From: Armatimonadota bacterium
GTDB lineage: Bacteria > Armatimonadota > Zipacnadia > Zipacnadales > UBA11051
Length of the DNA stretch: 64,000 nucleotides
Assembly: GCA_013178155.1 (NCBI GenBank)
Contig: JABLXH010000018.1
Location: forward strand, 2,702 to 66,701
Direction: 5' to 3'
A program made the translations under genes and the position numbers. This document shows, one piece after another, positions 43,843-61,214 of the stretch; the first letter of the stretch is position 1; every line of letters begins with the position of its first letter. The notes beneath the pieces are model-generated. The model was not told the DNA's origin, searched no databases, and saw nothing but the letters and a program-made list of their open reading frames with translations.

Positions 43843-43930
43843 ATGCCCACCTCTTATCCCGCCAGGGCCCTTCCCTCGACCGCCCGGGCCCCCGCAACAA
43901 TCACCGGAACCAGCTTCGGGCAGGGCGCTG

Positions 43931-44641
43931 CTACCAGCGAGCCATGTCTAACCTCAGCCGCTCCTCCGCCGCTGCCACCATCGCCGCCGCCCGTTCCTTC
44001 GCCCGTCGCCACTCCCGACGTCGGTCCCGGGCCAACCCGTGACCCGTTTCGTGCGTCTCGCCCAGCCGGGACTGACCGCGCTTCCCCTCCCGCTCACCGG
44101 CACCCGGCGTCGCTGGCCGGCGCCGCACTATCGGCCCCAGCACCTCACGCACCGTGCCGACGGCCATGGCCGCCTTCATCTCAAACTCGGCCGTCCGGAG
44201 ACCCCGCCCCCCACCAGGACCATTGGCATTCAGCTCCAGTCGCACTGGCTGCCGGCCGCTGACGGCCCGAGCAGACATCGAACCTGGCCTTGCGGGCGCC
44301 ATACGCCTTGCCCCCGTCCCGTCGGCCGCTGGCTCCCGTGCGCTGTCGCGCCATCGTCCTGCCACGGTGCCCTCCTGACCCCTCACGGCCTCCTGGGTTG
44401 CCCGACCCCTGAGGTCCTCCTCCGCGACCTGCATCCCCCGCTGCAGCCTCCCCTCTCGCTCCTCGGTCAGCGCGTACTTCCCAACGTGATGGGCCGCATC
44501 GGCCGTCACTTCGACTTCGGGCAACCCCCGGGCTACCACCGACTGGGCCGACCGGGCTATGCGCGGCCCCTCTGTCTGCGCCAACATCACTGGCACCGGC
44601 GCCCTCTTGAGCCTCCGTCTCCCCTTGCTCTCACCAACCAT
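43931..44641 (-). CDS. phage hypothetical protein (236 aa), Arg/Ala-rich; possible short tape-measure or tail-assembly protein
   Basis: Position between the tail chaperone-like small genes and the giant tail protein. A function guess is inference only. Confidence 0.45.
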   Translation of the reverse strand: MVGESKGRRRLKRAPVPVMLAQTEGPRIARSAQSVVARGLPEVEVTADAAHHVGKYALTEEREGRLQRGMQVAEEDLRGRATQEAVRGQEGTVAGRWRDSAREPAADGTGARRMAPARPGSMSARAVSGRQPVRLELNANGPGGGRGLRTAEFEMKAAMAVGTVREVLGPIVRRRPATPGAGEREGKRGQSRLGETHETGHGLARDRRREWRRAKERAAAMVAAAEERLRLDMARW

Positions 44642-44942
44642 CGTCCCGCGGACCTCCCGCTCGGTCCCAACCCCTCCAGTACGCCCGCTGCAACTCCGCC
44701 CGCCACGCCTCCACCAACAACTCAGGGGGCGCCGCAGGGCGCCCCCCTCTCCACACGTCCTCCAGAGCCCGCCAGGTTAGCAGCACCCACCCGGGCAAGG
44801 GTCGCGCCGTCCACCCCTCGCTGCCTGCGAGGGCCTCCAGCTCCCGCTGATCCGCGAAGTCAACCCCCTCCCGCCTCTGCGGGGCCGCACTTGCCGGAAG
44901 CCAAGCCGCCAGATCGGCCAGACCAACCGTCGCCGCAGTCAT
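44631..44942 (-). CDS. small phage hypothetical protein (103 aa)
   Basis: Short ORF co-oriented in the tail module. It overlaps the next gene by 11 nt. Confidence 0.35.
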   Translation of the reverse strand: MTAATVGLADLAAWLPASAAPQRREGVDFADQRELEALAGSEGWTARPLPGWVLLTWRALEDVWRGGRPAAPPELLVEAWRAELQRAYWRGWDRAGGPRDDGW

Positions 44943-44962
44943 CTGCAGCGCCCCCAGCCAAG

Positions 44963-45385
44963 TCAGTTTTTTTTGGCCAGCTCGATCTCCGCTCTCTGCT
45001 CAGGCAGACGGTGGTTAACCTCGGCGATGACCTCCTGCACCCAGTCGCTCAGCGGCGGCGTCAAGGCCATCAGCAGCCTTACCCTCTCCTCCGGGTCTTC
45101 CGGGCGCCCCTCCCACGCAACGCTCCCGTCCGACCCCGGGGCGGCCAGGTGGAAAGCCACGACGCTGTGCCGAAAGTCATACTCGGCCATCGCCCTCAGG
45201 TCATACCGCCTTCTCACCTGCACCGCTGCGTCGCCAACCCCTCCGCTTACCAGCAGGTACTCCTCATATAGGCCCAGGCTCTCCCGCTCCAGCGCCTCCG
45301 CTTCAGTCAGCGCCCGCACCTCTATCCAGCCCTCGCCCTCAGGCCTCTCGTACACCCGACTCGGCGGTTGCCACTCACCATTCAT
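44963..45385 (-). CDS. phage hypothetical protein (140 aa), tail-assembly chaperone position
   Basis: Acidic 140-aa ORF immediately after the putative major tail gene. Confidence 0.5.
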   Translation of the reverse strand: MNGEWQPPSRVYERPEGEGWIEVRALTEAEALERESLGLYEEYLLVSGGVGDAAVQVRRRYDLRAMAEYDFRHSVVAFHLAAPGSDGSVAWEGRPEDPEERVRLLMALTPPLSDWVQEVIAEVNHRLPEQRAEIELAKKN

Positions 45386-45394
45386 CGCTCGCTC

Positions 45395-46312
45395 CTAAGC
45401 CAGCACCACCGGCGGCGTCAGACCATCGAGGCTTCCCAGCCCCACGAACTGCACCGTCTCCACGATCCGCTGCTCGTGCGACCCTGGCAGGCCCAGATCA
45501 CTCTCGGTGTACAAGACGCGGGGCAGGGCGATGCTCGCTACGTTCGCGCCCCGGACCAACTCAATCCTCAGCGCTGCCTCCTGCCCCGCCGCGAAGTCGC
45601 TGTAGACCCTCGTGTCCACAAAGTCGCGACTGATCAGCCCCCGGCAACGCAGCCCGCTGAGGTTGTAAAGCTGCTGGGGATGTTTGCCACCCGTCAGCCG
45701 CAGGCCCTCGGCAGGTTCCTCCAGCATGTTGTCTATCACCAGGCGAATCCGTTCGCAGGCCACATCCTCCAGTAGCTGACCGCCACCACTGGCCAGTGCC
45801 ACCTCGGCCTCCTGATACAGATAGGGCGCTGTCGTCGGCAGACTCGGGGACGGATGCGCACCCCTCTCCATCTTCAGCGCCGCCAACTCCAGAGTGCACG
45901 TCACCGGCTGGCCCTTCACGAAGTCCATGACCATCCGCCGCACCTTGGCATCGGTCAACTGCTTGACCTCGTTCACGCAGTCCACTACCACCGACGCCCA
46001 CTTGCCCTGACTGTCCGCATCTCGATCCTGGACCCAGGAAAACAACGCGGTCAGTGCCCCGGGCACCAGTGGCACCGTCACCTTGCCTTCGGCCCACTCA
46101 CCAGCGCTGTAGTACTTGCTCTCGTAGGCGTTGTGATCCGCCATGTCCAGCGTGACATAGCTCTTCTGCCACTTCAGTGTGTCACTCTGACCACCGGGAC
46201 CTGCCATCAGGGGCAGCCATACACTCGGCGCCACATACTCCCCCTTGCTGGCCTGCAACCCAAACCCAAAGGCGCCCTCCTGCGCCAACGCCACTCCCAT
46301 CCTGCGCACCAC
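45395..46312 (-). CDS. putative phage major tail protein (305 aa)
   Basis: Positional call, downstream of the connector/adaptor genes and flanked by intergenic repeat copies. Confidence 0.5.
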   Translation of the reverse strand: MVRRMGVALAQEGAFGFGLQASKGEYVAPSVWLPLMAGPGGQSDTLKWQKSYVTLDMADHNAYESKYYSAGEWAEGKVTVPLVPGALTALFSWVQDRDADSQGKWASVVVDCVNEVKQLTDAKVRRMVMDFVKGQPVTCTLELAALKMERGAHPSPSLPTTAPYLYQEAEVALASGGGQLLEDVACERIRLVIDNMLEEPAEGLRLTGGKHPQQLYNLSGLRCRGLISRDFVDTRVYSDFAAGQEAALRIELVRGANVASIALPRVLYTESDLGLPGSHEQRIVETVQFVGLGSLDGLTPPVVLA

Positions 46313-46465
46313 CTTCCTCAGTACCTAACCGTTCGTCCCGGCCCCATCCGCCGGGCGTGTTTCGCCTCCCTGGTACGCCCTGCGTTCCCGCCAGGCTCGC
46401 CGCCCTCCCTGTTCCCTGACCTTCACCTCGCAGAGCAGCCACCAGGCGGCGATGTCCGCGTTCGC

Positions 46466-46507
46466 GCCTCTCCAATCTGTGCGAAGAGACACGAGGGGAG
46501 TTGTCAC
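46466..46507. repeat. phage-block intergenic repeat, degenerate copy R0
   Basis: gcctctccaatctgtgcgaagagacacgaggggagttgtcacc. The stop codon of the 46504..47190 gene lies in 'gtTCAcc'. Confidence 0.7.
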
Positions 46508-47190
46508 CCGCTCCACAACTCTGACCGCTTTGCCAGCACCCCGATTCGTGCCACGCGCAGCCCCGGCACCTTCGACCCCAGCTCCTCTGCCACTCGACTC
46601 TGCAACTCCACCTCGACCACCTGAGCGTGCCAGCAGGTCTCGCTCAGGTAGGGGTCAGCCATCACCAGGTTGAACAGGTCAGCCACCTTGGCGCCCAGCA
46701 CTTCCTCCGCACTCTCGCCCTCGCCCCCCTGACGCAGGTAGTAGACGTCCATCAGGTACTCCTGCTGGTACATGCGATTGCTGCCGGTGTTGGCCGGCTG
46801 GTTCATACGCACCGGGCACACCACCGCAGCCGGCAACTGCAGCGAGTGGGGCAGAGGCATCAGCCACGGCTGCCCACTGGCTACCCAACGCAACTCGGCT
46901 CCCGCCCCCTCAGCTAGCTGCAGCACCGCGCCCTGCACGGGCCCGAAGCTGCCCTCTACCTCCGTCCACAGCCGCACCTCCGTACTGCTGATCCGCTCCG
47001 CCACCTCATGCTGCTCAACCTGCCCCCCGTTATCCACCAGCCGAACTGCCGTCCCCGGCGCAAACAGCCGGGTGCTTCTGACTCGGACCCGATCCGACCC
47101 GTCAGTCGCTGCCGTCAGCTCCGAAGCCCCCTGCACGGCCATACGCAGCGCCTGCACAATCTCATTCTGATGGTACATGTCCACTCCCAT
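46504..47190 (-). CDS. phage head-tail joining/tail-terminator-like protein (228 aa)
   Basis: Positional call. Its stop codon is embedded in an intergenic repeat copy. Confidence 0.5.
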   Translation of the reverse strand: MGVDMYHQNEIVQALRMAVQGASELTAATDGSDRVRVRSTRLFAPGTAVRLVDNGGQVEQHEVAERISSTEVRLWTEVEGSFGPVQGAVLQLAEGAGAELRWVASGQPWLMPLPHSLQLPAAVVCPVRMNQPANTGSNRMYQQEYLMDVYYLRQGGEGESAEEVLGAKVADLFNLVMADPYLSETCWHAQVVEVELQSRVAEELGSKVPGLRVARIGVLAKRSELWSG

Positions 47191-47245
47191 GGAGCCACCT
47201 GCCCTTCCGCGCCATCACACCATCCCCTGCCATCGCCTTCTCCCT

Positions 47246-47288
47246 CCCCCTCTCCGCTGTGTGGCGGGGGAGCCAGGGGGTGAGAACC
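47246..47288. repeat. phage-block intergenic repeat, degenerate copy R1
   Basis: cccctctccgctgtgtggcgggggagccagggggtgagaacc lies between the 47292..47837 and 46504..47190 genes. Confidence 0.7.
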
Positions 47289-47291
47289 CTC

Positions 47292-47837
47292 CTACCACAG
47301 CCGCCGCACCACAACCCGACGGTGATGCCCCAGACCCGCTTCGTCCTCCACGCCCAGCACCTCATAGCGCTGTCGCAGCGCTACCGGGCTTCCCTCTGCA
47401 TGCGCCACCTCCACAGGTCGCTCCAGCAGGAACCCTTCTCCTGACCATTCCGCCACCCGCCGCACCTCGCGACCGGCGCCCTCGCCAATCTCGATCTCAT
47501 CTCCTGCCAACAGGCTGAGAGCCCCGGAGACCTGGATGACCTGATCCGCCACCTCCAGCGGCTCGGCCAGCACGCCTTGCGCAGCCCGTCTCACCACCAG
47601 GTCGCCCACCGCCACCTCCGGAACGACCCCGGCCAGGTACACCACGTGGCTGCTTTCGGGGTACAACCCCAGCAACCCCGACCGCGCCGTCGCCCCCGCC
47701 GGCTGCACCAGGCCCTTGACGCTGGCCACCAGGACATACTCCGGGTTGGCCACTCCCAGCTCCGGCCCACTGGCAACCGTCGCCCGCTCGATGCCGAGAT
47801 CATGCTCCAGCAACGCCGCCAACGCCACATCCACCAT
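47292..47837 (-). CDS. phage head-tail adaptor/head-closure-like protein (181 aa)
   Basis: Positional call. Confidence 0.5.
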   Translation of the reverse strand: MVDVALAALLEHDLGIERATVASGPELGVANPEYVLVASVKGLVQPAGATARSGLLGLYPESSHVVYLAGVVPEVAVGDLVVRRAAQGVLAEPLEVADQVIQVSGALSLLAGDEIEIGEGAGREVRRVAEWSGEGFLLERPVEVAHAEGSPVALRQRYEVLGVEDEAGLGHHRRVVVRRLW

Positions 47838-47857
47838 CGCTCACCCCTCGCTCTCCC

Positions 47858-48511
47858 CTAGACCGCTCTCAGGCGCATGACTCGGTAGCTCGCCAAAGCC
47901 TCCTTGGCCTCGCTGCACAGCCGGCATACCGCCGTGGCATACCGACCGTCTCGTCCGTAAGTCACCGCGTAGTCGCCGATCCGGGTGGCGGTAACCTCGC
48001 CCGCCTCGCCTCCTGCCGCGCCCAGGATCTCCGCAGCAGTCAGTTTGGCCTGGGCTATCCGGACCGCCTCTGGTACCGCCTCAAAGCCCCAGCTCACCAC
48101 CACCCCCACATTCAGGACCCCCGCCGCAAAGACCCGCAGCCGAGCCTTGCTCGTCAGCCGCAACATCCCCAGTTGCGGATAGGCCGCCCACTCCTCCTCG
48201 GCCAACTCCTCCTCACCCACCGTCACCGTGTGGACCAACGCCGGCGGCCGCACTCCAGCCTCACCCAGCATCAACCGTTCTGTGCCGCTGCCGTCCAGCC
48301 ATACCTCTTCACGCTCATGCCACATGAAGTCTCTTCCCGCATACCGCTCCACTGCCTCGCGGCTGGCCGCCAGCAGCCCACTGATCCGGTCCCGCAACGC
48401 CTCTGGCCCCAGTTCGTCACTCAGGTCGTAGCCCGCCAGCAACTGCTCTACCTCGGTGACGCTGCAGTAAGAGGTCGTGCGCCCGGTCGTGAACACACCC
48501 TCCGCTACCAT
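47858..48511 (-). CDS. phage gp6-like head-tail connector protein
   Basis: N-terminal 'VTEVEQLLAGYDLSDELGPEALRDRISGLLAASREAVERYAGRDF' matches the conserved N-terminal helix pair of gp6-like connectors. Confidence 0.55.
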   Translation of the reverse strand: MVAEGVFTTGRTTSYCSVTEVEQLLAGYDLSDELGPEALRDRISGLLAASREAVERYAGRDFMWHEREEVWLDGSGTERLMLGEAGVRPPALVHTVTVGEEELAEEEWAAYPQLGMLRLTSKARLRVFAAGVLNVGVVVSWGFEAVPEAVRIAQAKLTAAEILGAAGGEAGEVTATRIGDYAVTYGRDGRYATAVCRLCSEAKEALASYRVMRLRAV

Positions 48512-51500
48512 GTCTCAGACCACACTCCCTCCGAGTTCCGCACCCGCACCTTCCAGAAGTAAGTCGTGTCATCGGACAGCTCCGGTCCCCCAAACTCGAC
48601 CTCTGTCTCCGGGCTTGCCACCACACCGCTGTCCCAGATGTCCCCGGTGTTGGCTGCCAGCAGCTCAGCACTGGACGCCACCAGCACCTGGTACGCCGTC
48701 TGGGGCTTGCCCTGCGGATCGGAGTACCTCCACGAGAGCGCCGGTGTCAGGTCCGTTATGCCCGTGGGATTGATCTGACCCTCCACCCGCAGCTCCGTCG
48801 CCGTTGGCGCTCCCACAGCGTCCCGACCCGCCGCGTACCACGCATAGAGACTGGGCGAAACGTCGGTCGCCAGCGGCCGCTGCAGCACAAAGCGCAACCG
48901 CACCTCCTCCGCGGTCACGTGGTTGAGTGACACCCCGCCCCACGACACCACCTGCTCCACGCCCGGCCCCAGCACGTCACAGTCCTCGGCCCCAAATCCC
49001 GCCAGCGGCTCCTCCGTGCGCGGGTCAATCACCTCCACCCGCACGCTCCCCGCCCCTGGTTCGCAGTTCACCAGCAATCGGGACCAACCGCTGCTCGGCC
49101 TCTGCAGTACCGGCGTCTCCAGGAACCCGGTTACCGCCCCCGCCGCCAGCTCGTAGTACGTCTCCCGGTCACGCCCAATGTGCGCCATATTCAGACCGGT
49201 GCCGGCGTAGTAGTACAGAACCAGCTTGTCCCCCAGCAGAAACGAAGTCCGCACCGGCCCCCCGGCCAGGAACTCTTCATCCACCGGCTGGAAGTGCCGG
49301 TCATCCTCCGTCGCCCAGAGCCTGAGGTAGCTCCCAAAGGACAACACGTACAGCGTCGTGAAGTCGTCCGACACGGGCCGCGGGTGTAGCTCGTACAGAT
49401 CCGCCGCTGCCAGAGGGCTCAGCAGATTGCCGTGCGGCAGCAGGAAGAAGCTCCTGAGGTCTCCGCTCGTCCACCCGGCGAGCGGGCGCCGGTTGTAGCT
49501 GAGGTAGTCCCCCGACATCAGCATCGTCTTGAACCGACTGTAGCCCACAAAACGACGCTCTGGTCTCGAAGCATAGGGATTGTGCGCCACCATCCAGTCC
49601 GCGTCCCGGTTGCCCCACAGGCAGATGCTGCCACCGTCCGCCGACAGCTTCTCCGTGCCGCCCATGCCCGGCAGCAACGGGTTCTCCGTCCACCAGTGTT
49701 TCTCCCAGTCAAAGCTCCAGCGGTCCTGCGCGCCCACCAGCGCCCTGATCCAGTAGTGATCCGGATTTGCCTCCGTCCCCCCCTGCAGCATCGTCCAGGA
49801 CCCATCCGGCATCCCCAGCACCGTCGCGATCCCCGGGCTCTCCAGACCCCAGGTCGCGTCCCGGGTGCTCCATGGTCGCACGTCCTCCGGACTCAGGAAG
49901 GGATTCTGCCGTCCTGCGGGAGGGGTCTCGTCAGCCCACGACACCCGTGACCGGGTCGCATCCCAGGTTCCGACCAGATAGCCCCCTCGCCACACGCCTC
50001 CGGGGTCCGTGCCTCCCACCAGCACCGTCACCCGGTCCAGAAGCTCCTGGGGCTGCACGACCGAGTGCAACTCCGCCGTGTGCCGCCAAGTCCCCGCCGC
50101 CCGCAGGTCCGCCTCCACACCCGCAGGATCCGGGTCAACGACCGGCTTGGCCGATCTCCAGACCACACCCTCCTGGCGCCACACCCGGCTACTCTGACCA
50201 GTGTCCACGTCTCGCACCAGGAAACTGTCCCCCAGCTCGAAACCCCGCCCCAGCGCGGAGTCCTCGGGAGCCATTGTCTGGTACCCGCCGGGCCCCTCGA
50301 TGGTCAGGCTCTCCAGCCGGATATCGCATTGATAGCTCGCCGGCACCGGGTGGCTGATGCTTCGCCCAAACATCATGTACCGCCCAAGCGGGTCACTCCG
50401 GTAGTTTGTCAGCGTCATCAGCGCCGACCGACCACGCTCATACCGCACCAGCGTAGTGCTCTTGTCCGCGCTATAGACACACTCCAGCTCCAGCCACGGA
50501 CGATCGGTGCTGTAAGACTCCCACAACCACGCCTCCAGATTCTGCTGCTCATTCAGGGGCGTCGCCGATGCGAGCAGGCGCCCCCGGTGATCCACAACTC
50601 CCTTGTCGCCGGCCGCTGGCACTCCCGCCAACGCCCCGCTCACAGTGATCACGCCGGTCGCCGCCGTGTAGCCCGTCACCTTCAGCCGACACCCCGCCTG
50701 CGCCCCCGTCCGCATCGTCAGCTCTGCGCCAACCCAGTAGCCATCCCCACGGTTTGGCAGGTTCGTCTTGAACCGGGACGCCGTGTTCCCCGCATCGGCC
50801 ACCACCGCGAACAGCTCTCCGGTACCCCAGGTCCCGAAGTTGTTCCCGAGTTGGCCTCCAGCCACGTAGCACAGGGGACCCAGCGTGATCTGCGTCCCCA
50901 CCGGGTTCGTCTCCGCCGGGCAGTTCACGCGCATCCGAATCGTCGCCGGACACGCCATGTGAAACGGGTTGATCCATTCCCGCAGCCACCCTACGCCTTG
51001 CCCCGTGCTGCTGCCTCCATATAGCTGACTGACTTGCACCTGGCCGTAACGGGCGTGGTTGGTCAGCGTCGTGTAGGCGCTCGCCCCCGCATGCGTAATG
51101 GGGGTCAGCACCGCCTGCAGCGGAACGCGGTCATCGGGCGTGTTGTCATGCCGAGGCATGCCGATATTGAAATGGTGTCTGACGCCTCGCGCCCGTGACC
51201 CATCGTCCAGCCGGCAGAACTCATCCCAATCCGCACTGCCAACCTCCCAGTACGCCGTGGCGTCGCCACCAGCTATCTCCGCATCGTAGCTGCCGTCGAA
51301 GGTCGCCAACAGGGTCAGTTGCCCCGTGCCATCGCTCTCCCGGATCAGTCGTCGGCGCCGGTTCTGCCTCGTGGCCCACGAGTTGGCGCCCCCCAGGATC
51401 GCGTCATGCTGCGCCTTCGTCATCACGCCGTCCCAGACTGCGAAGTTGTCGTAGCACCCGTTCACCGCTTCCGCCGTCTCCGTGGCTCCCGGGCCCAGGT

Positions 51501-51912
51501 ACAGCTTCGCCGCCTCCACCACGGGTGCCGAAGCGTTGTTTACCTGCGCCGGCGCCTCAACCCCATTCACATACACTCGCAACTGCCCGGCCCCTGGCGT
51601 CGTGAAATCCCACGTACAGGTCACCGGCATCCAGTGGTTCCTGTCGCGCCACGGGTAGTTGGGCCAGCTAACCCACCACGAAGTGCCGCCTGACCGACAC
51701 TCGAAACCCAGCGAATCTGCCCCGAACACACCGAAGCGCAGATAGTTGTTGCTGTCGCCCACGGCCTTCCATAGCGGACGCCACGACGGATAGTCCGGGG
51801 AGGCATGGAACCAGAAGAACACCGTCCCCTGGCTGCCCGGTCCGATCCTGATGTTGCCCGGACCCGAGTAATAGAACCCCGGCTTGCCCACATACAGAAA
51901 CTGCTTCCTCAT
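48505..51912 (-). CDS. giant phage protein (1136 aa) with N-terminal LamG/concanavalin-like jelly-roll and C-terminal fibronectin-III-like domains, encoded between capsid and connector genes
   Basis: The ORF-track N-terminus 'MERGEGRE...' is a translation of the intergenic repeat. The real ATG at 51910-51912 ('MRKQFLYVGKPGFYY') has GGAGG 6 nt upstream. LamG-like region 'WRPLWKAVGDSNNYLRFGVF...LRVYVNGVEA'. C-terminal FN3-like 'PTGITDLTPALSWRYSDPQG...YFWKVRVRNSEGVWSETW'. Confidence 0.65.
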   Translation of the reverse strand: MRKQFLYVGKPGFYYSGPGNIRIGPGSQGTVFFWFHASPDYPSWRPLWKAVGDSNNYLRFGVFGADSLGFECRSGGTSWWVSWPNYPWRDRNHWMPVTCTWDFTTPGAGQLRVYVNGVEAPAQVNNASAPVVEAAKLYLGPGATETAEAVNGCYDNFAVWDGVMTKAQHDAILGGANSWATRQNRRRRLIRESDGTGQLTLLATFDGSYDAEIAGGDATAYWEVGSADWDEFCRLDDGSRARGVRHHFNIGMPRHDNTPDDRVPLQAVLTPITHAGASAYTTLTNHARYGQVQVSQLYGGSSTGQGVGWLREWINPFHMACPATIRMRVNCPAETNPVGTQITLGPLCYVAGGQLGNNFGTWGTGELFAVVADAGNTASRFKTNLPNRGDGYWVGAELTMRTGAQAGCRLKVTGYTAATGVITVSGALAGVPAAGDKGVVDHRGRLLASATPLNEQQNLEAWLWESYSTDRPWLELECVYSADKSTTLVRYERGRSALMTLTNYRSDPLGRYMMFGRSISHPVPASYQCDIRLESLTIEGPGGYQTMAPEDSALGRGFELGDSFLVRDVDTGQSSRVWRQEGVVWRSAKPVVDPDPAGVEADLRAAGTWRHTAELHSVVQPQELLDRVTVLVGGTDPGGVWRGGYLVGTWDATRSRVSWADETPPAGRQNPFLSPEDVRPWSTRDATWGLESPGIATVLGMPDGSWTMLQGGTEANPDHYWIRALVGAQDRWSFDWEKHWWTENPLLPGMGGTEKLSADGGSICLWGNRDADWMVAHNPYASRPERRFVGYSRFKTMLMSGDYLSYNRRPLAGWTSGDLRSFFLLPHGNLLSPLAAADLYELHPRPVSDDFTTLYVLSFGSYLRLWATEDDRHFQPVDEEFLAGGPVRTSFLLGDKLVLYYYAGTGLNMAHIGRDRETYYELAAGAVTGFLETPVLQRPSSGWSRLLVNCEPGAGSVRVEVIDPRTEEPLAGFGAEDCDVLGPGVEQVVSWGGVSLNHVTAEEVRLRFVLQRPLATDVSPSLYAWYAAGRDAVGAPTATELRVEGQINPTGITDLTPALSWRYSDPQGKPQTAYQVLVASSAELLAANTGDIWDSGVVASPETEVEFGGPELSDDTTYFWKVRVRNSEGVWSETW

Positions 51913-52067
51913 CCCAACCTCCCCATCAGTACTCGTCCTGCCACCCCAGACGGTCAGGGCGGCGAGCCTCCACCTCCGCCCGCCGCCCGTCACCTCTACA
52001 GACAGCGCCGCATGTCCCACCGCCTTCGGTAGGAGCGGCCACGAGACTGCGATGCCCTCCCGCCCCT

Positions 52068-52107
52068 CCCCCCTCTCCACCCTGTGGAGAGGTGCCGGGG
52101 GTGAGGT
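52068..52107. repeat. phage-block intergenic palindromic repeat, copy R2
   Basis: cccctctccaccctgtggagaggtgccgggggtgaggt lies 5 nt after the capsid stop. Confidence 0.85.
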
Positions 52108-52112
52108 GCCGT

Positions 52113-53051
52113 CTAGCTCTTCGCCACGTTCACGGCCACCACCATCGCATCCGGGTTCTCGATGGCCACCGCCACCCGAGTCGTGATCGCATACACATTC
52201 ACGCCCCGCAGGATGTCCTTGTCCTTGTCAATGCGGATCTCCCGATGGATACCAAACACCAGGTTCTCACGCGGCGTCAGAAACCCGTAGCTCAGGTTCG
52301 TCCCCACGTGACCAAGGATCCCGCTGAGGTTGGTCGGAATGACCGGCACCGACACCACGGGCACCCCCATGTACGGCGGCACCTCACCACCAAGCAATGC
52401 CTTGTCCCCCAGCGACGTGCCCCGGTCGGCAAAGGTGTCATGCCAATCCTGCGCTGCCGCCGGCGCAAAGTAGAACCGCAGGTCCTTGTAGTTGCGCTTG
52501 TACTTGTCCGGCAGCGCCCGGAACATCGCCCCAAGGCCCGACTTGTCCAGCGTTGCCCCCTCCAGGTCCACCACGTGCCCGTCATCCGCCAGCACCCGCC
52601 AGCCGTCCAGCCCCGACAGGAACGGATCAGCGGAGTTCGTGTCACCGTGCACCGCCAGCTCCTCCAGGTCCGTGGCCGTCTGCTTGGCCATCACCCGCAC
52701 CACCGTGCTCTCCAGACCATCGCCCTCGATGCTGTCCTCCAGCGCCTCAAAGGTGATCTCAAACGGGGTGATGACGTCCGTCGCCCGTAGTATCACCTTC
52801 CCGAACGCTGGCTCGCTCAACGTGGCCGGAGCCACTCCCTCATTCTTGAGTTGGCTCACACGCCCCGTGGTCGCGATAGTGTCCAGCTCGGTCACCGCCG
52901 AGCGCATCCGCACCACGCGCACTTCCTTCAGCATTACCGACTGGTCCACTACCAGGTCCGTGAACCGTTTGGCCTGCTCAGTCCCCAGCAACCCACCGTC
53001 CGCCAGATCCGTCGTGTCCACGGCCTTCTGCAGCATCTCGTCTACTGTCAC
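52113..53051 (-). CDS. HK97-fold major capsid protein
   Basis: 312 aa with the Phage_capsid pattern ('...TLSEPAFGKVILRATDVITPFEITFEALEDS...VMAKQTATDLEELAVHGD...'). Confidence 0.82.
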   Translation of the reverse strand: MTVDEMLQKAVDTTDLADGGLLGTEQAKRFTDLVVDQSVMLKEVRVVRMRSAVTELDTIATTGRVSQLKNEGVAPATLSEPAFGKVILRATDVITPFEITFEALEDSIEGDGLESTVVRVMAKQTATDLEELAVHGDTNSADPFLSGLDGWRVLADDGHVVDLEGATLDKSGLGAMFRALPDKYKRNYKDLRFYFAPAAAQDWHDTFADRGTSLGDKALLGGEVPPYMGVPVVSVPVIPTNLSGILGHVGTNLSYGFLTPRENLVFGIHREIRIDKDKDILRGVNVYAITTRVAVAIENPDAMVVAVNVAKS

Positions 53052-53492
53052 TCACAGCACCCCTTCCCAGATCTCGTCTGCCGTCAGTAGTCGCGCCCGC
53101 TGGCCGCGCAGCCCCTGCGGGACCCCTGGACGCGTTACCTCCTCTGCCGTCCGGTCAGCCTCGGCCGCCCTGCTCTTGGTCAGAGCGTCCGTATCCGGGT
53201 TCTCCCTCCACTCGCTGACCGCCTCGACCAACTGCGCCTCGCTACCACCTTGCCCCACGCCATACGCCGCCTCCACCGCCGCCACGCGCTCACTCAGCTG
53301 TCTGACCTGTTCTGCCAGTCCTGCCAGTCCGTCACCACCGCACCCCCCGCCGCAACCGCCCTCATCCACGTTGTTCGCCAGGGCCGGCTGACCCAGACTC
53401 GCCTCGTAGCCTCCCTCACTATCCCGCGGCCCGGCCACCGGGCGGCGAGACCTCCTCATCCACCACCAGAGCGCCCTCAGCCAGCCGCGCAT
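53052..53492 (-). CDS. phage scaffold/decoration-like acidic Gly-rich protein
   Basis: It lies between the protease and capsid genes. ATG at 53492 (GAGGTGG RBS) overlaps the protease end by 16 nt. An alternative ATG is at 53459. Confidence 0.45.
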   Translation of the reverse strand: MRGWLRALWWWMRRSRRPVAGPRDSEGGYEASLGQPALANNVDEGGCGGGCGGDGLAGLAEQVRQLSERVAAVEAAYGVGQGGSEAQLVEAVSEWRENPDTDALTKSRAAEADRTAEEVTRPGVPQGLRGQRARLLTADEIWEGVL

Positions 53493-54007
53493 CCGCTTCC
53501 CACCTCGCCCTGCCCCCTCTCCCGCTCCGTCCTCGCCGCCGACACCAGGGTCTCCACCCACGTCTCCGGGTTCTGTGCCTCACTGCTGTGGCAGACCGCC
53601 ACATGGTCCAGCTCCGCCATCTCCACCTTGCGCACCCGCCGCCCCGTCCGGACGTCCATCTCGTATGTCACCTCGCGGACGCGCCCTCCCACGCTCAGCC
53701 TGCGACCCCGCAGGCGCACCAGCCCGCGCTTCAGCCGACCCTCGACCCGCAGCTTGCCATCCTCCACCCAGCAACGCTCCACGACCCCGATCGCTCGGCC
53801 GCCGTGGCGCTCAAGCAGTGGCACCGGCTGCGCCGCCGCCAGGCTTTCCAGAGCTGCCTCTGTCATGCAGTCGCCCTGACGGTCCACTGCGGTCGTCGCG
53901 GCGACCCCCTGAAACCGCACTGCCGTGCGATTACCCCGCCCAGCTCTCAGCAGCACCGCAAAGCCCATGCGGCCTCCGCTGCCCTCACTCACTCCCCGTC
54001 TGGCCAA
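53477..54007 (-). CDS. HK97-family prohead protease (Peptidase S78)
   Basis: 'FQGVAATTAVDRQGDCMTEAALESL...VPLLERHGG.AIGVVERCWVEDGKLRVEGRL' fits the S78 pattern with the catalytic His. Confidence 0.72.
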   Translation of the reverse strand: MARRGVSEGSGGRMGFAVLLRAGRGNRTAVRFQGVAATTAVDRQGDCMTEAALESLAAAQPVPLLERHGGRAIGVVERCWVEDGKLRVEGRLKRGLVRLRGRRLSVGGRVREVTYEMDVRTGRRVRKVEMAELDHVAVCHSSEAQNPETWVETLVSAARTERERGQGEVGSGCAAG

Positions 54008-54186
54008 CCCTCACTCCCCTCCCCGAAACAGCAAGCGGCCCACTCTCCCGAGTGAGCCGCAATGATCAACGTTCATCCTCGCCTTGTCTGCCCGACGTGC
54101 CGCCGCAGTGGCCCGACGTGATTCACCAACCTCAATCTCTCACTCGCCCTCTGCACCCGGTGGTGAGGGGGCCAGGAAGTGAGGCC

Positions 54187-55398
54187 CTATCCCAGCGGCG
54201 CCAACCCCATCTTGCCCCGAATCTCGTCTACCGTCAGCGCCCCAATGCCTGCGTATACCGCGGCCACCTCGGCCTCTTCCTTCGCCTCCGACAGATCGAG
54301 TTCGTTGAACCGAAATGCCCAGTCGCCAATCCCCAACTGTTCCGCAATCAGCCGGTTGAACCGGTACTCCACCCGCCGCTGCTCGGGCCGCACCACTTGC
54401 TCCCGGAACGTCTTGTCCTGGTCTTTGCTGTTGGCCAGGTTGGCGTTCTCAATAACCGTCACCTTGCTCGGCGGCACGCGATGAACCAGCAGCACCTCGT
54501 CTCGATTCGCCCGCCGGTAGTCCAGGAACGCCGCGTCCTCCTGACCCCCCGCTGTCAGTTTCTCCAGACGCACCCGCGTCTCTCGCCCCGGCACCTCGAG
54601 CACCAGCGTCTTGTGCCCCTGCCCCTTCACCTCGCTTTGCATGAAGTGGCGCAGTTGCTCCAGAACCTCCTCTGACAACTGACCACCCTCCACGATGATC
54701 GCCATCCGGGGCACCGCGTTATGGGTGAAAAAGTCCACGTTGTACTCTCGGGCCGCCTTGTCCCCCAGTACCGCCGATACCGCGGGCACAATGTCTGGCA
54801 CTCCATAGTAGCTGGACATCGGCGTGTACTTCATGAAGTGCAGCATCTCGTTTTGCACCAGCCCGCTCTCCGGGTCAATCTCCTCCGGTCCACCAACCAT
54901 CCGGAACCGCCGCCGCTGACCCTCGCGTTCCTGGACGAACCCCTTCCGGTCCGCGCGCACGCGCACAGTTGTCGCCGGCACATGGTACATCCCGTCCAGT
55001 TGGCCCCGGCTGTTGCGCGTCAATTCCATATACCCGTTGCCAACGCACTCCACGTCCGTCCACACCGCTCGCATGACCTCCGTGAAGGTCATGTCTGGAT
55101 TGCAGGTGGCAAAGAGATGCTCCAGCACTGCCAGGTTCTCCGCCGAAGCCTCTCGCTCATCCCCGACAGGCACGAAGCGGTATCCCAGACCCACGATGTT
55201 GGTAGCCTTGGCATCAACGCACGCCTTGTGGGCCGCATTGGTCTCATACAGCGAGGCCAGCGCCTCCAGATCATACGGCGGCTGCACAACCTCTCCGGTT
55301 GCGTAAGCTTCACTCCACACCGCCTCTGGTAGCTGCTGACTACGCCCACCGACCGTCTCACCGACCACCCTCGCCTTAATCAGCTCATCAATCGCCAT
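54187..55398 (-). CDS. phage portal protein (HK97 family)
   Basis: Portal pattern 'NIVGLGYRFVPV...VECVGNGYMEL...'. The ORF-track N-terminal 64 aa derive from the intergenic repeat. ATG at 55396-55398 has GGAGG 8 nt upstream. Confidence 0.82.
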   Translation of the reverse strand: MAIDELIKARVVGETVGGRSQQLPEAVWSEAYATGEVVQPPYDLEALASLYETNAAHKACVDAKATNIVGLGYRFVPVGDEREASAENLAVLEHLFATCNPDMTFTEVMRAVWTDVECVGNGYMELTRNSRGQLDGMYHVPATTVRVRADRKGFVQEREGQRRRFRMVGGPEEIDPESGLVQNEMLHFMKYTPMSSYYGVPDIVPAVSAVLGDKAAREYNVDFFTHNAVPRMAIIVEGGQLSEEVLEQLRHFMQSEVKGQGHKTLVLEVPGRETRVRLEKLTAGGQEDAAFLDYRRANRDEVLLVHRVPPSKVTVIENANLANSKDQDKTFREQVVRPEQRRVEYRFNRLIAEQLGIGDWAFRFNELDLSEAKEEAEVAAVYAGIGALTVDEIRGKMGLAPLG

Positions 55399-55526
55399 GC
55401 CTCCAACCTCCGCTACGTTGCCCATCACTCGCCCGGCCCGCCGGCCACCGACCCCGTCCGCCCTCGCCTCCCGCCTCTTGCCGTCTGGAGAGGCCGGACC
55501 TGTCCGGCCTGCCGTCACACCTTTCT

Positions 55527-55560
55527 CCCCTCTCCACTGTGTGGAGAGGGGCCGGGTGTG
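55527..55560. repeat. phage-block intergenic palindromic repeat, copy R3a
   Basis: cccctctccactgtgtggagaggggccgggtgtg. Confidence 0.85.
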
Positions 55561-55577
55561 CGCCTTGCCCTTGCCGT

Positions 55578-55620
55578 CCCCCCTCTCCACTCTGCGGAAA
55601 GAGAACCAGGGGTGAGGTCA
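55578..55620. repeat. phage-block intergenic repeat, degenerate copy R3b (contains stop codon of upstream BNR gene)
   Basis: cccccctctccactctgcggaaagagaaccaggggtgaggtca. The TGA of the 55618..56052 gene lies in 'gtgaggTCA'. Confidence 0.8.
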
Positions 55621-56052
55621 CACCTCACTCTCCTTCACCCACGTCTCACCATCATCCACACTCACGTACACATCGATCGCCGGCGCCCTCTGGACAGCGA
55701 CCACCAGCGGTCGCCCTTGGGTGTCCACCTTGACCAGCCCCGCCCGTGCCTCATCCGCTGGCGACGCCACCAGCCGCTCCTCGCTCCCGTCGGCAAACCT
55801 TAGCCACGTCTGACACCCATCGGCACTCTTCCGCAGATACTGCCCGCCGCCGCGATACCCTACCACGTACCAGATCCCCCCATACTCCACCATCACCGGA
55901 TGGCTCAGCCCTGTCACCTCACCCACCTCGCTCCCCTCCCCGCCGTCGCCGTACGCCACGCACCATAGGCCATCGCCGTTGCCCTCTTGTTTTTCTCTTA
56001 TGCGCCTGATATGCGCCTGACCCAAACTCCCGGAGCGATGAGGCTCCGTCAT
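55618..56052 (-). CDS. small BNR (bacterial neuraminidase) repeat-containing protein within phage head module
   Basis: Two S-x-D-x-G-x-T-W motifs, 'SADGCQTW' and 'VDDGETW'. It lies between the terminase and portal genes. Confidence 0.5.
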   Translation of the reverse strand: MTEPHRSGSLGQAHIRRIREKQEGNGDGLWCVAYGDGGEGSEVGEVTGLSHPVMVEYGGIWYVVGYRGGGQYLRKSADGCQTWLRFADGSEERLVASPADEARAGLVKVDTQGRPLVVAVQRAPAIDVYVSVDDGETWVKESEV

Positions 56053-56109
56053 GCTGTTCCCCGCTCTCCCGCCGGGGTTGGGGTCGGAGTGTCACCCCCT
56101 CGCCTTTCT

Positions 56110-56150
56110 TCCCTCTCCACCCTGTGAAGAAGGGCCGGGGGTGAGGTCAC
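56110..56150. repeat. phage-block intergenic palindromic repeat, copy R4 (contains terminase stop codon)
   Basis: tccctctccaccctgtgaagaagggccgggggtgaggtcac. The terminase stop TGA (plus-strand tca) is at 56147-56149. Confidence 0.85.
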
Positions 56151-57667
56151 ACGATCCTCCCCCTGACCCCATCGTCCTCACCCCATGCCCGCACCGCCTC
56201 ACTCACCGCACCGGCCACCGCATCAGCCACATCCTTCGAACCCCCTGGCGGATGGTCCACCTTCACGCCCCGCACCAGCTCCAGCCGCCGCAGTTCCCGC
56301 AGCAACGGCTCGTAGGCATACATCCGGAGCCGCCCGTCATACGCCAACTCCTTCAGCGTCTCGTACGCCCCCGTATCCCGATCCACCGACACCGTCGCCA
56401 CCTGCAGACCGTGGCGCCGCAGAATCTGCTGACTATCGGCACTCTGCCAGCCGTCGTAGCTCACTTGGGCAATCGGAAAGCCCCGCGCTCTGAGCGCCAG
56501 TATCAGCTCGCGAACCTGTGCCAGGTCCACCTCCCCACGCGCGGGAGCCGCGATCCGGTGCATCAGCTCCACCACCGCCACCGGCCGCCCCGCCTCGGTG
56601 ACCACCTTTGCCATCGCCACGCCGCACGCATCCCGTCGCAGCCCCAGGTCCACGTGCACATATCGGGCCTCCCGGTCGTCAGGCCGAAACCACGCTGCCA
56701 GCGCGCCCTGGCCCTCGATCGGATGCCGCCGGTGCGCCTCGCAGGCCTCCTCCAGGGGCCCTATGTCCGTGAAGTAGGGCTGAAACGCCGTCCCGGGCAG
56801 CGCCGCCAGATCTCGCTTGGCCTTCTCTGGGTTCCGACGAAACTCCGCCTCATACTCCACGGGCACCGTCAGCCCATCAAACTCAAAACGCTTTCCGCAA
56901 AACCTCCCACGAGGCTTGACCTCCCACGTTGCCCTCCGCGACCCGTAGATCGTCGGATCACTCTCCGCCTCAGCCAGCTTCCGCATGACGAAATCGTCGC
57001 AGTGCCGCGGCGAAGAGGCGATAACCATCAGCCCCTGGTCGCCAAACCTTGACCGGATCCGCCGCTGCAAGGCCAGATACACATCCTCCGCCGCCTCCCG
57101 CCGACCATCCAGGGTCTCCACGAAGAAGCTCGCCTCATCCATGGTCGCGCACAGCACGTTCAGCCCCAGCGGAAAAGTCTCACTGGAATTACCCGGCAGC
57201 ACCACCACATTCTTCGGAAAGTGCAACTCTCGCCGCACCCGCGCATCGGGCTTGTAACGCTCCCCAAACCATGGCGACCGCTGCACCAGCTCCCGCAGCT
57301 CCCCAAACACCACCTTCTCCGCCACTCGCGCCGTCGGACCCACCGTCGCCAGGACGATCTGACTCCCCTCCGCCAACCCCAACTCCCTTTGCGGCGCCCG
57401 CAGACACAGCGTCCGATACAGCCGGTAGAGTAGCGCCAGCGTGCACAGGTACGACTTCCCACTCCCAATCCCCCAGCACAGCACCGCCTCCTGGTAACGG
57501 CCCCGGAAGATCCGTCCCAGCGTCCTCAGCACCTCCGGATAGACGCTGGCCCCCACCCCCAGGTACTCCTCGTCACACACAAAACGCCGCACCGAGACCG
57601 GCCTCTCATCCCACCTCTGTCGTCCCGCCCGGGCCACCGGCGCCAGACCTTCGCCCTTCTCGTCCAT
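56147..57667 (-). CDS. phage terminase large subunit
   Basis: Walker A-like 'CWGIGSGKSYLCT' near the N-terminus and a C-terminal nuclease-like region. 506 aa. First gene of the block. Confidence 0.78.
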   Translation of the reverse strand: MDEKGEGLAPVARAGRQRWDERPVSVRRFVCDEEYLGVGASVYPEVLRTLGRIFRGRYQEAVLCWGIGSGKSYLCTLALLYRLYRTLCLRAPQRELGLAEGSQIVLATVGPTARVAEKVVFGELRELVQRSPWFGERYKPDARVRRELHFPKNVVVLPGNSSETFPLGLNVLCATMDEASFFVETLDGRREAAEDVYLALQRRIRSRFGDQGLMVIASSPRHCDDFVMRKLAEAESDPTIYGSRRATWEVKPRGRFCGKRFEFDGLTVPVEYEAEFRRNPEKAKRDLAALPGTAFQPYFTDIGPLEEACEAHRRHPIEGQGALAAWFRPDDREARYVHVDLGLRRDACGVAMAKVVTEAGRPVAVVELMHRIAAPARGEVDLAQVRELILALRARGFPIAQVSYDGWQSADSQQILRRHGLQVATVSVDRDTGAYETLKELAYDGRLRMYAYEPLLRELRRLELVRGVKVDHPPGGSKDVADAVAGAVSEAVRAWGEDDGVRGRIV

Positions 57668-57763
57668 CTACCCCTCCCACGCCTCGCCCTGCACCAGCCT
57701 CCGCCGTTGCTCGGCAAGGGCTTGTCCCCCGCCCGCCATCGGTCCTCGCTCCCTCGCTGTTCT

Positions 57764-57802
57764 CCCCTCTCCACCCTGTGGAGAGGGGCTGGGGGTGAGG
57801 TC
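57764..57802. repeat. phage-block palindromic repeat, copy R5a (upstream of terminase)
   Basis: cccctctccaccctgtggagaggggctgggggtgaggtcc. Confidence 0.85.
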
Positions 57803-57816
57803 CAGCCCCCTGCCGT

Positions 57817-57860
57817 CCCCCTCTCCACCCTGCGGAGCGGGGCCGGGTGTGAGGTCTCAC
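57817..57860. repeat. phage-block palindromic repeat, copy R5b
   Basis: cccctctccaccctgcggagcggggccgggtgtgaggtctcac. It is preceded by 'tgccgtcc', as in R3b, so R3a/b and R5a/b are the same composite ~95-bp unit. Confidence 0.85.
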
Positions 57861-57985
57861 CATCAACCCCCATGTACTAAGCACACTCACAGACCGTTTC
57901 TCCCACTCACTCTGCTCCCGAAGACCAAACGGGGCGCGGTCTCCCGCGCCCCTCTCGGTTATCGCTTCGCCGACCCGCCGCTGGC

Positions 57986-58723
57986 TTACTCCTGCGGCCA
58001 GTCGTACCCCGGAAACTCACAATGCCCCGGACCCAGCTCGTGATGGTCCAGCCACCCCGTCGGTTTCCCCGGGCATGAGCCGGTGCCATCATTCACCCAC
58101 GGCCCCGACCCATACGCAAACCACTTGCCATGCCCATCCAGGAAAGCGAAGTTGTTACCGCCATTGTGCCGCGGCTTGACCTCATCGGGATAAAGCTGGC
58201 TCCATCCTGCCTGTCGCGGGTGCTCCGAAGCTGCATCATCCCACGTGCCCATCAGGCATGCGCCCTTCTCCAACAGAAGCAACGTGCTGGACGGATATGG
58301 CGGGTCATCCAGGTCTTGGGCGCTCACATACCGCGGCAGCGCATACCCCCGCTTCGGCCCCGTCTGCTGCACATCCGTTCCGTTCATCTGCACCGTCACC
58401 GTCTGCCCGTTGAACACGTTCATCGGACATACGAACACCTGCGTGTTCTTCACGTACGGCATGAGCTGAATGTCCCACGAGTAGCCCTGCCCGTCGGCCG
58501 GCCGCGGCCAGTGGTAGAGGTTCCAGCAGGGCACCAGGTTGTCAAAGTCACTGGCGTATAGCAGCGCCGCCGTCGCCAACTGCTTCATGTTGGAAAGGCA
58601 GTTCGCCTGCCGCGCCTTGCCCCTTGCCTGCGCGAACACGGGGAAAAGTATCGCCGCCAGGATCGCGATGATCGCGATTACCACCAGCAGCTCGATCAGC
58701 GAGAACCCATGTCTCCTGCCCAT
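57986..58723 (-). CDS. DUF1559 / H-X9-DG family protein with prepilin-type N-terminal methylation domain (second copy)
   Basis: '[49 protein letters not shown]...' and C-terminal '[14 protein letters not shown]'. ATG at 58721-58723. Confidence 0.85.
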
Positions 58724-58969
58724 CGCAAGCACCGACCCTCCTGGCTGACCACCTGTCCCAGGCATCGTTTCACCAGCATCAAGCGGTACGCCAACACGTA
58801 CAGGATACCCCTGCCGGCAGTGCCAGAAACGCCCCCTCCTGGTCACCCCTTTGACCCTCTGTTGCCCCATCTGGTTTCCGGGTTCCTCCGCCACCGTTGC
58901 CAGGCGTCCGTCCCCCTCACCACCTCCGCCGCCCAGCCCACGGACATCCTCACCCCGCCCCCGTCTCTC

Positions 58970-61210: not shown

Positions 61211-61214
61211 GGCC

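Follow-up and report, generated by a model that had tools for sequence, protein, structure and literature searches.

A Dispersed REP-Like Palindromic Repeat in the Leader and Gene Junctions of a Phage-Derived Head–Tail Cluster of an Armatimonadota Bacterium

Introduction

What is a palindromic repeat of about 40 nt doing at one gene junction after another of a phage-derived head–tail gene cluster? The question is raised by a 64,000-nt stretch of DNA from an Armatimonadota bacterium (GenBank assembly GCA_013178155.1, contig JABLXH010000018.1, positions 2,702 to 66,701; hereafter the window, with position 1 its first letter). An initial annotation, made from the letters of the window, took the repeat to be a family private to the phage block and proposed that it serves as a recognition site for a dedicated regulator, in the manner of the stoperators of mycobacteriophages, or else as a partial terminator or RNase processing site. 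The present study suggests a different answer. [quoted passage not shown] The reading as a private regulatory code fails because the unit is dispersed in unrelated loci and is not conserved in orthologous clusters.

Results and Discussion

A C-Rich Box and an 11-bp Hairpin Make Up the Repeat Unit

All genes of the repeat-bearing region lie on the minus strand, on which the unit in the window reads ACCTCACCCCC-GG-CCCCTCTCCAC-AGG-GTGGAGAGGGG or, generalised, ACCTCACCCCC-nn-CCCCTCTCCAC-nnn-GTGGAGAGGGG. Alignments and folds resolve it into a conserved 10-nt box, an 11-bp stem and a 3-nt loop. Specifically, the C-rich box ACCTCACCCC, which forms the conserved flank, is followed after 2–4 nt by the 11-bp hairpin CCCCTCTCCAC-nnn-GTGGAGAGGGG, whose stem has CCCC/GGGG at its foot, GTG adjoining the loop and not the foot. 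A purine-rich tail lies on the 3′ side of each hairpin; it is a degenerate 3′ box and at some copies might plausibly serve the next gene as a ribosome-binding site. The 3′ box bears a resemblance to a stretch of 16S rRNA, GGGGTGAAGTC, that we take to be coincidental. The idea that the box (ACCTC...) mimics an anti-Shine–Dalgarno sequence by pairing with downstream ribosome-binding sites was rejected, as the pairing is inconsistent across copies.

The 11-mer CCCCTCTCCAC, with at most one mismatch, has 17 matches in the window against 4.3 expected, all within 44744–63219, and the 21-nt hairpin pattern with at most three mismatches likewise has 17, against 0.5 expected. A covariance model of the box plus the 11-bp hairpin (model R1, built from alignment A2), run without filters over all 64 kb, reports seven strong copies, 7 of 7 on the minus strand (E values from 2e-14 to 6e-9), and one weak copy (E = 0.015), with no copy in 1–44 kb or 58–64 kb. 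Repeat finding recovers the family and the 53–54 nt spacing of both tandem pairs. Thus, of the eight copies originally described, the repeat itself and seven strong copies stand, as do the box and 11-bp-stem hairpin on the transcribed minus strand, borne out by covariance model and folds, and the two tandem composites, which share the linker GGACGGCA (TGCCGTCC on the plus strand). However, the copy placed at 46466 is unsupported at E ≤ 10, and the weak unit at 54143–54188 had been overlooked. The copies, with model R1 scores, are as follows.

57815–57858, minus strand: R5b, in the TerL leader; first unit of a direct tandem pair; 54.6 bits, E = 8e-12
57761–57804, minus strand: R5a, the highest-scoring copy, its 11-bp stem perfect; second unit of that pair; 65.2 bits, E = 2e-14
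56107–56150, minus strand: R4, directly after TerL; two G-U pairs in the stem; 55.4 bits
55577–55621, minus strand: R3b, directly after a 144-aa open reading frame (ORF); first unit of a tandem pair; several G-U pairs; 51.8 bits
55524–55567, minus strand: R3a, second unit of that pair; degenerate box on both sides; 50.5 bits on the minus strand and 32.7 on the plus strand
54143–54188, minus strand: weak, degenerate unit directly after the portal TAG; two adjacent stem mismatches; 16.6 bits, E = 0.015
52067–52110, minus strand: R2, 5 nt beyond the TAG of the capsid gene, in the post-capsid hairpin slot whose position is conserved; 61.8 bits
47244–47289, minus strand: R1, a diverged unit between ORFs of 181 and 228 aa; 42.9 bits, E = 5.8e-9
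46463–46510, minus strand: R0, a loose resemblance only, unreported by the model at E ≤ 10; folds as a 13-bp, G-U-rich stem

Unit starts fall 0–5 nt after stop codons, and the description of R2 as beginning 5 nt after the capsid stop is confirmed. The TGA stops of TerL (56149–56147) and of the 144-aa ORF (55620–55618) both stand in the context GTGTGA-CCTCACCCC, so the claim that an upstream TGA lies within the repeat end holds for R4 and R3b; R0 is unsupported as a copy and possibly a degenerate relic at best. Similarly, the statement that the repeats occupy nearly every intergenic gap is accurate for head-side gaps of more than 40 nt between 47 and 58 kb, but none lies in the tail-side gaps at 38–46 kb. 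R5b and R5a follow no cluster gene and are located in the leader, between the canonical terminator of the upstream host gene (57952–57931) and TerL, and R3a lies ~130 nt upstream of the likely true portal start, an ATG near 55397. The portal ORF as listed starts at 55590, inside R3b, and its Pfam portal domain begins only at residue 122; the 1191-aa ORF that follows the capsid gene is listed as starting at 52080, inside R2. Both starts are mis-extended across repeats, as had been noticed.

Searches of databases and literature gave the unit no name. No Rfam family matched the whole window at the gathering threshold, and at E ≤ 10 the 44–64 kb region gave only chance-level miRNA and snoRNA matches (E ≥ 1.4); a tRNA/tmRNA gene search of the window found none. 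A full-text literature search with four 10–11-mers of the unit returned just unrelated primers and eukaryotic sequences, and one on REP elements in prophages returned nothing specific. A CRISPR array was considered and rejected: the units are 38–44 nt long, the linkers are only 10–20 nt and themselves repeated, and both loops and stems vary between units. Separately, at 44730–44780 (minus strand), a half-unit GTGGAGAGGGG is fused to another perfect hairpin, GGGGGCGCC-CTGC-GGCGCCCCC, inside a 103-aa ORF (44631–44942) that may not be a real gene.

The Unit Is Dispersed across Distant Bacteria

The family is not private to the phage block. The exact box-plus-hairpin pattern occurs in more than 119 stretches among the matches listed from species-representative genomes and in nine viral contigs of 44–65% GC. 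The stretches are labelled Chloroflexota (Anaerolineae, Chloroflexia and Dehalococcoidia, complete chromosomes among them), Gemmatimonadota, Acidobacteriota, Myxococcota, Bacteroidota, Zixibacteria, Spirochaetota, Armatimonadota, Pseudomonadota, SAR324 and Patescibacteria. Near-identical 38-nt units are therefore found under more than 10 phylum labels as well as on viral contigs, and several single metagenome-assembled genomes (MAGs) carry copies on 5–12 separate contigs among the matches listed. In plasmid and chromid records, blastn finds the close variant CCCTCACCCCC-GG-CCCCTCTCCCGC...GCGGGAGAGGGG in the cultured Cupriavidus sp. EM10 (11 places, with one inverted doublet), Leptolyngbya, Pseudanabaena, Prevotella and Sulfitobacter; one phage record has a weak unit match. 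The conservation beyond the hairpin that had been read as a phage-specific recognition site is the family's own box, ACCTCACCCC.

In its full form the element is built as a nested palindrome of box, hairpin and reverse-complement box (for example at loci L004, L067 and L068), in which the box and its reverse complement can act as inverted ends; the form with a one-sided box is commoner. The loop triplet varies freely across the family, yet is shared by copies of one lineage. Among the matches listed, 48 intergenic units lie between co-directional genes, 17 between convergent genes and 4 between divergent genes. Orientation relative to genes across phyla favours box-first on the sense strand (33:15), a ratio that is confounded by the kinship of copies and by the co-orientation of genes with replication and is contradicted by two of the orthologous clusters described below (L139 and L151). 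Inverted doublets 60–85 nt apart, the layout of REP doublets forming hairpins (REPINs), are common in loci labelled Chloroflexota, Acidobacteriota, Myxococcota and Spirochaetota, whereas the window and an Armatimonadia MAG, CAYWBK01, show direct tandems and mosaics with other hairpins, not inverted pairs.

Dispersal is also seen within that MAG. Its five matched loci comprise one orthologous cluster (L121) and four ordinary host loci. In L121, where the capsid is 60%, the large protein 37% and the adaptor 46% identical to their counterparts in the window, 6–7 units lie within 6 kb, three of them in the same gap between capsid and large-protein genes that holds R2. At L095:1–261, in the rpoC–fusA region, five direct tandem units with a 55–59 nt period lie directly after fusA (EF-G), the array reaching the contig end. 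Two units follow a gene for an MFS transporter, two intergenic positions in L105 lie among metabolic genes (creatininase and DegT-type aminotransferase genes), and one unit lies upstream of a putative S-adenosylmethionine-dependent methyltransferase gene. The composite linker of the window (GGACGGCA / GGAACGGC) recurs in the CAYWBK01 arrays. The likeness to this MAG suggests, too, that the window derives from an Armatimonadota genome. Scans of related genomes with the model or pattern thus find copies in unrelated intergenic regions, housekeeping loci included, and not a restriction to the phage block.

A further arrangement is seen in Anaerolineae F20_72 (L035, L043, L066, L068, L115 and L119), where an element of ~100 nt with inverted ends CTGAGGGGAGGACA...TGTCCTCCCCTCAG lies inside the loops of family hairpins. 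It carries its own box-plus-hairpin unit, and the surrounding loop region is apparently duplicated, which points to nested, loop-targeted insertions.

Orthologous Clusters Lack, Reorient, or Absorb the Unit

A capsid-based search retrieved 2 viral and 21 metagenome loci, and insertion of the units is apparent through comparison of the window with these relatives. L134 (FWPV01001125.1, 77 kb, 99% identical) has the same copies as the window. The order TerL–portal–capsid–large protein–adaptor–tube–tape-measure-position ORF is kept in L144 and L151, and yet model R1 finds no copy in L144 (20.9 kb of cluster), nor in L142, L145, L132 or L133, these five having capsids 70–72% identical to that of the window. 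In contrast, L151 has seven copies, four in the opposite orientation and two inside TerL; L139 has four or five, mostly in the opposite orientation and one inside TerL; L141 has two, and L140 has one weak copy. The clusters of the relatives adjoin host genes other than those of the window (in L151, glgC and glgA are the immediate upstream neighbours of a small ORF and TerL), and the cluster of L139 is truncated after the capsid gene.

The copies within coding sequence are absorbed in frame. The TerL ORF is intact and measures 640 aa in L151 (5851–7773) and 609 aa in L139 (4855–6684), as against 506 aa in the window; its additional residues are the element itself translated in frame, for example ...SPPSLPERGGQGGES... 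and ...RPLSPLLQRSEGEGAGVRRS.... The scaffold-like ORF of L139 (8945–9976) likewise contains an in-frame element peptide, ...SPLPQGEGSGVRD..., and PLSPLLQRSEGEGAGVR is another of the peptides added to TerL or this ORF. At one insertion site in TerL there is a native GGGGAGGT (residues GGEV), similar to the 3′ box. Another insertion, in L151, has direct GGGTGAGTC repeats on its flanks, but no consistent target-site duplication emerged. Because it is absent, reoriented, or within coding sequence in orthologous clusters, the element is apparently insertion-derived and variable, and is not a conserved component of the cluster.

These comparisons bear directly on the view that the units are binding sites of a cluster-specific phage regulator, or of the response regulator encoded by the adjacent REC-domain gene. 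The stoperators of mycobacteriophages are sites of 13 bp at which a repressor binds, peculiar to one phage cluster and its immunity repressor, and the window does resemble that arrangement, with many copies of a short asymmetric motif in the small gaps of a phage block, all in one orientation relative to transcription and conserved beyond the stem. However, the unit is a hairpin spread genome-wide in many phyla, in hundreds of unrelated places that include the 3′ side of fusA in a relative; it is missing from five orthologous clusters and reversed in L139 and L151; and no recognisable DNA-binding regulator is encoded in the cluster and no repressor nearby, the REC gene itself lying outside it among host genes. 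We give a dedicated regulator, stoperator-like or otherwise, almost no credence.

The same variability is what one would see if the copies, though of the same dispersed REP/MITE-like element, were neutral or mildly deleterious passengers that built up in tolerant spacers of a long-resident, perhaps decaying phage remnant, with no effect on expression. Five orthologous clusters manage without copies; positions, copy numbers and orientations differ among relatives; several copies are degenerate (R1, the unit at 54143, and R0); and in relatives copies lie inside coding sequence, with the cluster of L139 truncated. Nevertheless, a strong hairpin follows the capsid gene in nearly all relatives whatever its sequence, the 3′ arm is intact and invariant in every copy of the window, with stem changes that are G-U compatible, and the viral contigs L002, L005 and L010 have three or four occupied positions per 6–12 kb, against a single position in 100 of the 119 host loci listed. 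Passengers without effect are thus a possible but somewhat doubtful explanation.

Dense Occupation Recurs in Phage Head Modules

Counted by a stringent hairpin criterion, with host loci of up to 8 kb, 100 of the 119 host loci listed have one occupied position, 18 have two and 1 has three. By comparison, the window has six occupied positions within 10.6 kb, and the IMG/VR contigs L002, L005 and L010 have 3–4 separate ones per 6–12 kb. According to PHROGs these three contigs are head modules of other gene families (TerL, portal and a Mu-F-like minor head protein; portal and a protease–capsid fusion), with no detectable similarity to the cluster of the window except for a 26%-identical portal match in L005. 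Dense occupation therefore recurs in phage structural operons. Candidate causes are the many tolerant junctions of long operons, selection for RNA structures, and insertion bias.

A single, horizontally spreading family would also accommodate these data. Here, a conserved trans-acting partner would hold the ~38-nt sequence fixed across more than 10 phyla, and phage head–tail operons would be its preferred habitat and possibly its vehicle; the partner may be a host factor of universal occurrence, or else a single-strand transposase or nuclease that has been widely transferred. Multicopy occupancy of unrelated head modules (the window, L121, L002, L005 and L010) fits this idea, as do the insertions beside box-like target sequences inside TerL, and direct arrays could arise by repeated insertion beside existing boxes. 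We consider such a family unlikely.

Predicted Stem-Loops and a Conserved Post-Capsid Slot

All copies in the window share the sense orientation and are predicted to fold as hairpins, with fold z-scores from −1.8 to −2.8, apart from R1 (+0.49), whose canonical hairpin is not the predicted minimum-energy fold. In R4 the degenerate 3′ box, GGGGGTGA, pairs with the 5′ box. Of the eight non-Watson–Crick positions in the stems of the window, six form G-U pairs when read on the mRNA strand, with no A-C among the eight, and the 3′ arm is invariant. This comparison of G-U with A-C as a test of the strand counts as weak evidence.

A more telling observation comes from the relatives. In nearly every one a strong hairpin lies within the 160 nt 3′ of the capsid stop, built from unrelated sequences (for example in L133, L144, L146, L149, L151 and L152). 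In the window and in L121/L150 the repeat family supplies it; in L141 a family copy lies downstream of another post-capsid hairpin, and L139 and L140 have variant, nested forms. Because the position is kept and the sequence varies among relatives, the hairpin after the most abundant structural gene is a conserved slot, filled by the repeat here.

What such hairpins would do depends first on whether they end transcription. No unit is followed by a T-tract, and none is reported by a terminator consensus scan, which does report the host terminator at 57952–57931; because they lack a U-tract the units are not canonical terminators, and intrinsic (Rho-independent) termination was ruled out. They might instead be partial terminators, factor-independent or Rho-dependent, which step transcription down and which an antiterminator may override. 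As stable, GC-rich hairpins located after genes they would suit this role, and the 5′ box together with the 5′ arm is a C-rich, G-free tract of ~24 nt that resembles a Rho utilisation site; Espéli et al. reportedly described BIME-associated Rho-dependent attenuation in Escherichia coli in 2001. Not only the missing T/U tract, in a neighbourhood where a host gene has a classical terminator that the same scan detects, but also the location of two units in the leader, before the first gene, and the want of an evident antiterminator gene in the cluster make partial termination quite unlikely.

Processing by enzymes of the RNase III or RNase E type, which would cut the mRNA into separately stable segments as in phage T7, is another role that intercistronic positions would suit, and in the folds of R4 and R2 the 5′ and 3′ boxes pair around the inner hairpin and leave an internal loop, much as in RNase III substrates. 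The 11-bp inner stems are, however, below the typical length of such substrates, and orientation and position vary among relatives. We regard dedicated processing sites as decidedly improbable. Thus, of the roles in partial termination or processing that had been proposed for the repeat, what survives is a possible generic effect of stem-loops, whereas canonical termination does not.

A Probable REP-Like Origin and a Possible Role in Transcript Stability

The reading that we favour, that of insertion-derived dispersed palindromes probably acting as generic stem-loops, can be set out as follows. Units would have arrived by insertion, with local tandem duplication, in the leader and intercistronic spacers of a resident phage-derived head–tail operon. 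Transcribed within the polycistronic minus-strand mRNA, they would fold into stable stem-loops and, by analogy with E. coli REPs, could act as barriers to 3′-to-5′ exonucleolytic decay and perhaps also as weak attenuators or as obstacles to ribosomes at stop codons. E. coli REPs are barriers to decay that favour upstream cistrons, and here too the upstream cistrons would benefit, most plausibly the capsid gene. Intergenic stem-loops are known to set stoichiometry through selective RNA stabilisation (PMC4423207), and REP stabilisers form an acknowledged class among the decay intermediates of mRNA, on which PMC5927463 lists a paper in its references. It is an inference by analogy that the unit fits the behaviour of REP stabilisers and stoichiometry-setting stem-loops. 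As in the cip-cel operon and with the malEFG REP stabilisers, a stable hairpin is located directly downstream of the cistron needed most, here that of the capsid (PMC4423207); unlike in those systems, the function of the unit is deduced from its position, and the hairpin comes from a mobile repeat family and not from a locus-specific sequence.

Several observations weigh against this reading. With IS200 TnpA and an E. coli REP-associated tyrosine transposase (RAYT) as tblastn queries, neither a RAYT nor any other transposase was credibly matched near any copy in the window or in 131 loci, a sample of ~1 Mb surrounding random copies. (Two weak leads were dismissed: one lies inside a glycine dehydrogenase gene, identified with Pfam, and the other in an ORF that resembles pyruvate:ferredoxin oxidoreductase by eye alone.) The fold z-scores are modest because of the GC-rich background. 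Copies from outside the window that were not selected by pattern have 11 G-U against 18 A-C positions and hence no G-U excess, and the G-U pattern of the window could come from a C-to-T mutation bias on the G-rich strand (GC skew). Unit orientation varies in relatives, and the box is without a demonstrated role in mRNA. Moreover, the host DNA of the window (1–38 kb and the flank at 58–64 kb) has no copy detected by model R1, so that the presence of copies elsewhere in the chromosome of the source organism, outside the cluster, is inferred from a relative. Finally, the retention of ~38 nt of sequence across more than 10 phyla is not explained by the REP model.

With REPs, BIMEs and REPINs of E. 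coli, Pseudomonas and Stenotrophomonas, as REPs and REPINs have been defined (PMC3337134, PMC3116915), the unit shares a short (~38–45 nt), imperfectly palindromic form with an asymmetric conserved flank; an extragenic location, mostly at the 3′ ends of genes and rarely between divergent ones; and many dispersed copies per genome, as seen in relatives, although the other 44 kb of the window has none. It likewise occurs singly and creates spurious ORF extensions; its inverted doublets in some loci and its clusters with other hairpins elsewhere recall REPINs and BIMEs. However, its stem foot lacks GT[AG]G (or CGTC), a RAYT was not detected beside any copy in the loci searched, the Armatimonadia units form direct tandem arrays and not inverted pairs, and phage-derived gene clusters are densely occupied by copies. 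For REPINs, restriction to a lineage and vertical inheritance have been described (PMC5581495; 10.1101/2022.05.22.493013), which sets them apart from the unit, found under more than 10 phylum labels.

Other small repeats offer partial parallels. Rickettsia palindromic elements (RPEs) insert in frame into unrelated genes (PMC10969869), and in the intact TerL and scaffold-like ORFs of L151 and L139 the unit does the same, adding peptides of the form ...PLSP..GEGxGVR... In contrast, RPEs are ~100–150 bp long and confined to Rickettsia, whereas the unit is ~40 nt and pan-bacterial, with all copies in the window intergenic. Chunjie of Geobacter and SPRITE of pneumococcus are small non-autonomous repeats of operons and gene ends that leave the operon intact and form transcript hairpins (PMC10969869). 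The unit, which also sits inside operons or at gene ends and forms transcript hairpins, differs in having no defined terminal inverted repeats or target-site duplication, no U-tract such as that of SPRITE, and no known parent insertion sequence. Insertion polymorphism is clear, both from presence or absence at orthologous junctions and from the in-frame TerL insertions.

These results remove the reading of the repeats as a private phage regulatory code and correct gene starts that had been mis-extended over them. They also indicate that a REP-like unit can be common, almost unchanged, to very distant bacteria, that it accumulates in phage-derived structural operons, and that even an essential phage enzyme, TerL, can take it up in frame. 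Should a shared partner protein or spread by phages underlie its conservation across phyla, the strictly vertical, lineage-bound view of REP-type elements would be challenged and a handle on their movement gained. The post-capsid hairpin, with its position kept and its sequence varied, offers a case, open to direct test, in which a mobile repeat supplies what may be a functional RNA structure.

The Hosting Cluster and Other Features of the Window

The genes of the cluster, assigned with Pfam and PHROGs, and the terminator beside them are as follows.

38308–57667, minus strand: phage-derived head–tail cluster hosting the repeats (Pfam and PHROGs)
57931–57952, minus strand: canonical intrinsic terminator of the upstream host pilin-like gene; 9 GC pairs, then GTTTGGTCTT
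56147–57667, minus strand: TerL, 506 aa
54187–55590, minus strand: portal, ORF as listed (Pfam/PHROGs)
52113–53051, minus strand: HK97-type capsid (Pfam/PHROGs)
48505–52080, minus strand: 1191-aa LamG/Ig protein (Pfam/PHROGs)
47858–48511, minus strand: head–tail adaptor (Pfam/PHROGs)
45395–46312, minus strand: tail tube (Pfam/PHROGs)
40630–43842, minus strand: 1070-aa ORF in the tape-measure position, no family match
38308–40605, minus strand: tail protein (weak PHROG match)

The direct upstream neighbour is a host gene for a DUF1559/N-methyl pilin-like protein (57986–58894), and downstream lie the REC-domain gene (36363–36941), then secG and a HIT-family gene. Within the cluster, Pfam and PHROGs identify no integrase, repressor, replication or lysis genes, and neither a recognisable DNA-binding regulator nor an evident antiterminator gene. 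Such a structural-only cluster would be either what remains of a prophage or a domesticated cluster akin to a gene-transfer agent.

Four minor observations concern individual features. A second classical terminator-like hairpin with a T-rich tail lies inside the cluster at 54035–54060 (minus strand), between the portal gene and the next ORF. The large protein of ~1180 aa encoded at 48505–52080, between the capsid and adaptor genes, combines a LamG-like lectin domain with an Ig domain of Rha78A type at its C-terminus, and keeps its capsid–adaptor position in relatives at 33–37% identity. At 53052–54007, between portal and capsid, two overlapping ORFs (176 and 169 aa) correspond to a single ORF of 343 aa in L139 and of 300 aa in L144, which suggests that the gene in this scaffold/protease position has been split by a frameshift, a programmed shift or a mis-call. 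Lastly, well outside the cluster, 17528–20428 encodes a 966-aa protein with a C-terminal GreA domain and a long N-terminal extension, like the GreA fusions in NCBIfam PRK14720 and PRK06330.

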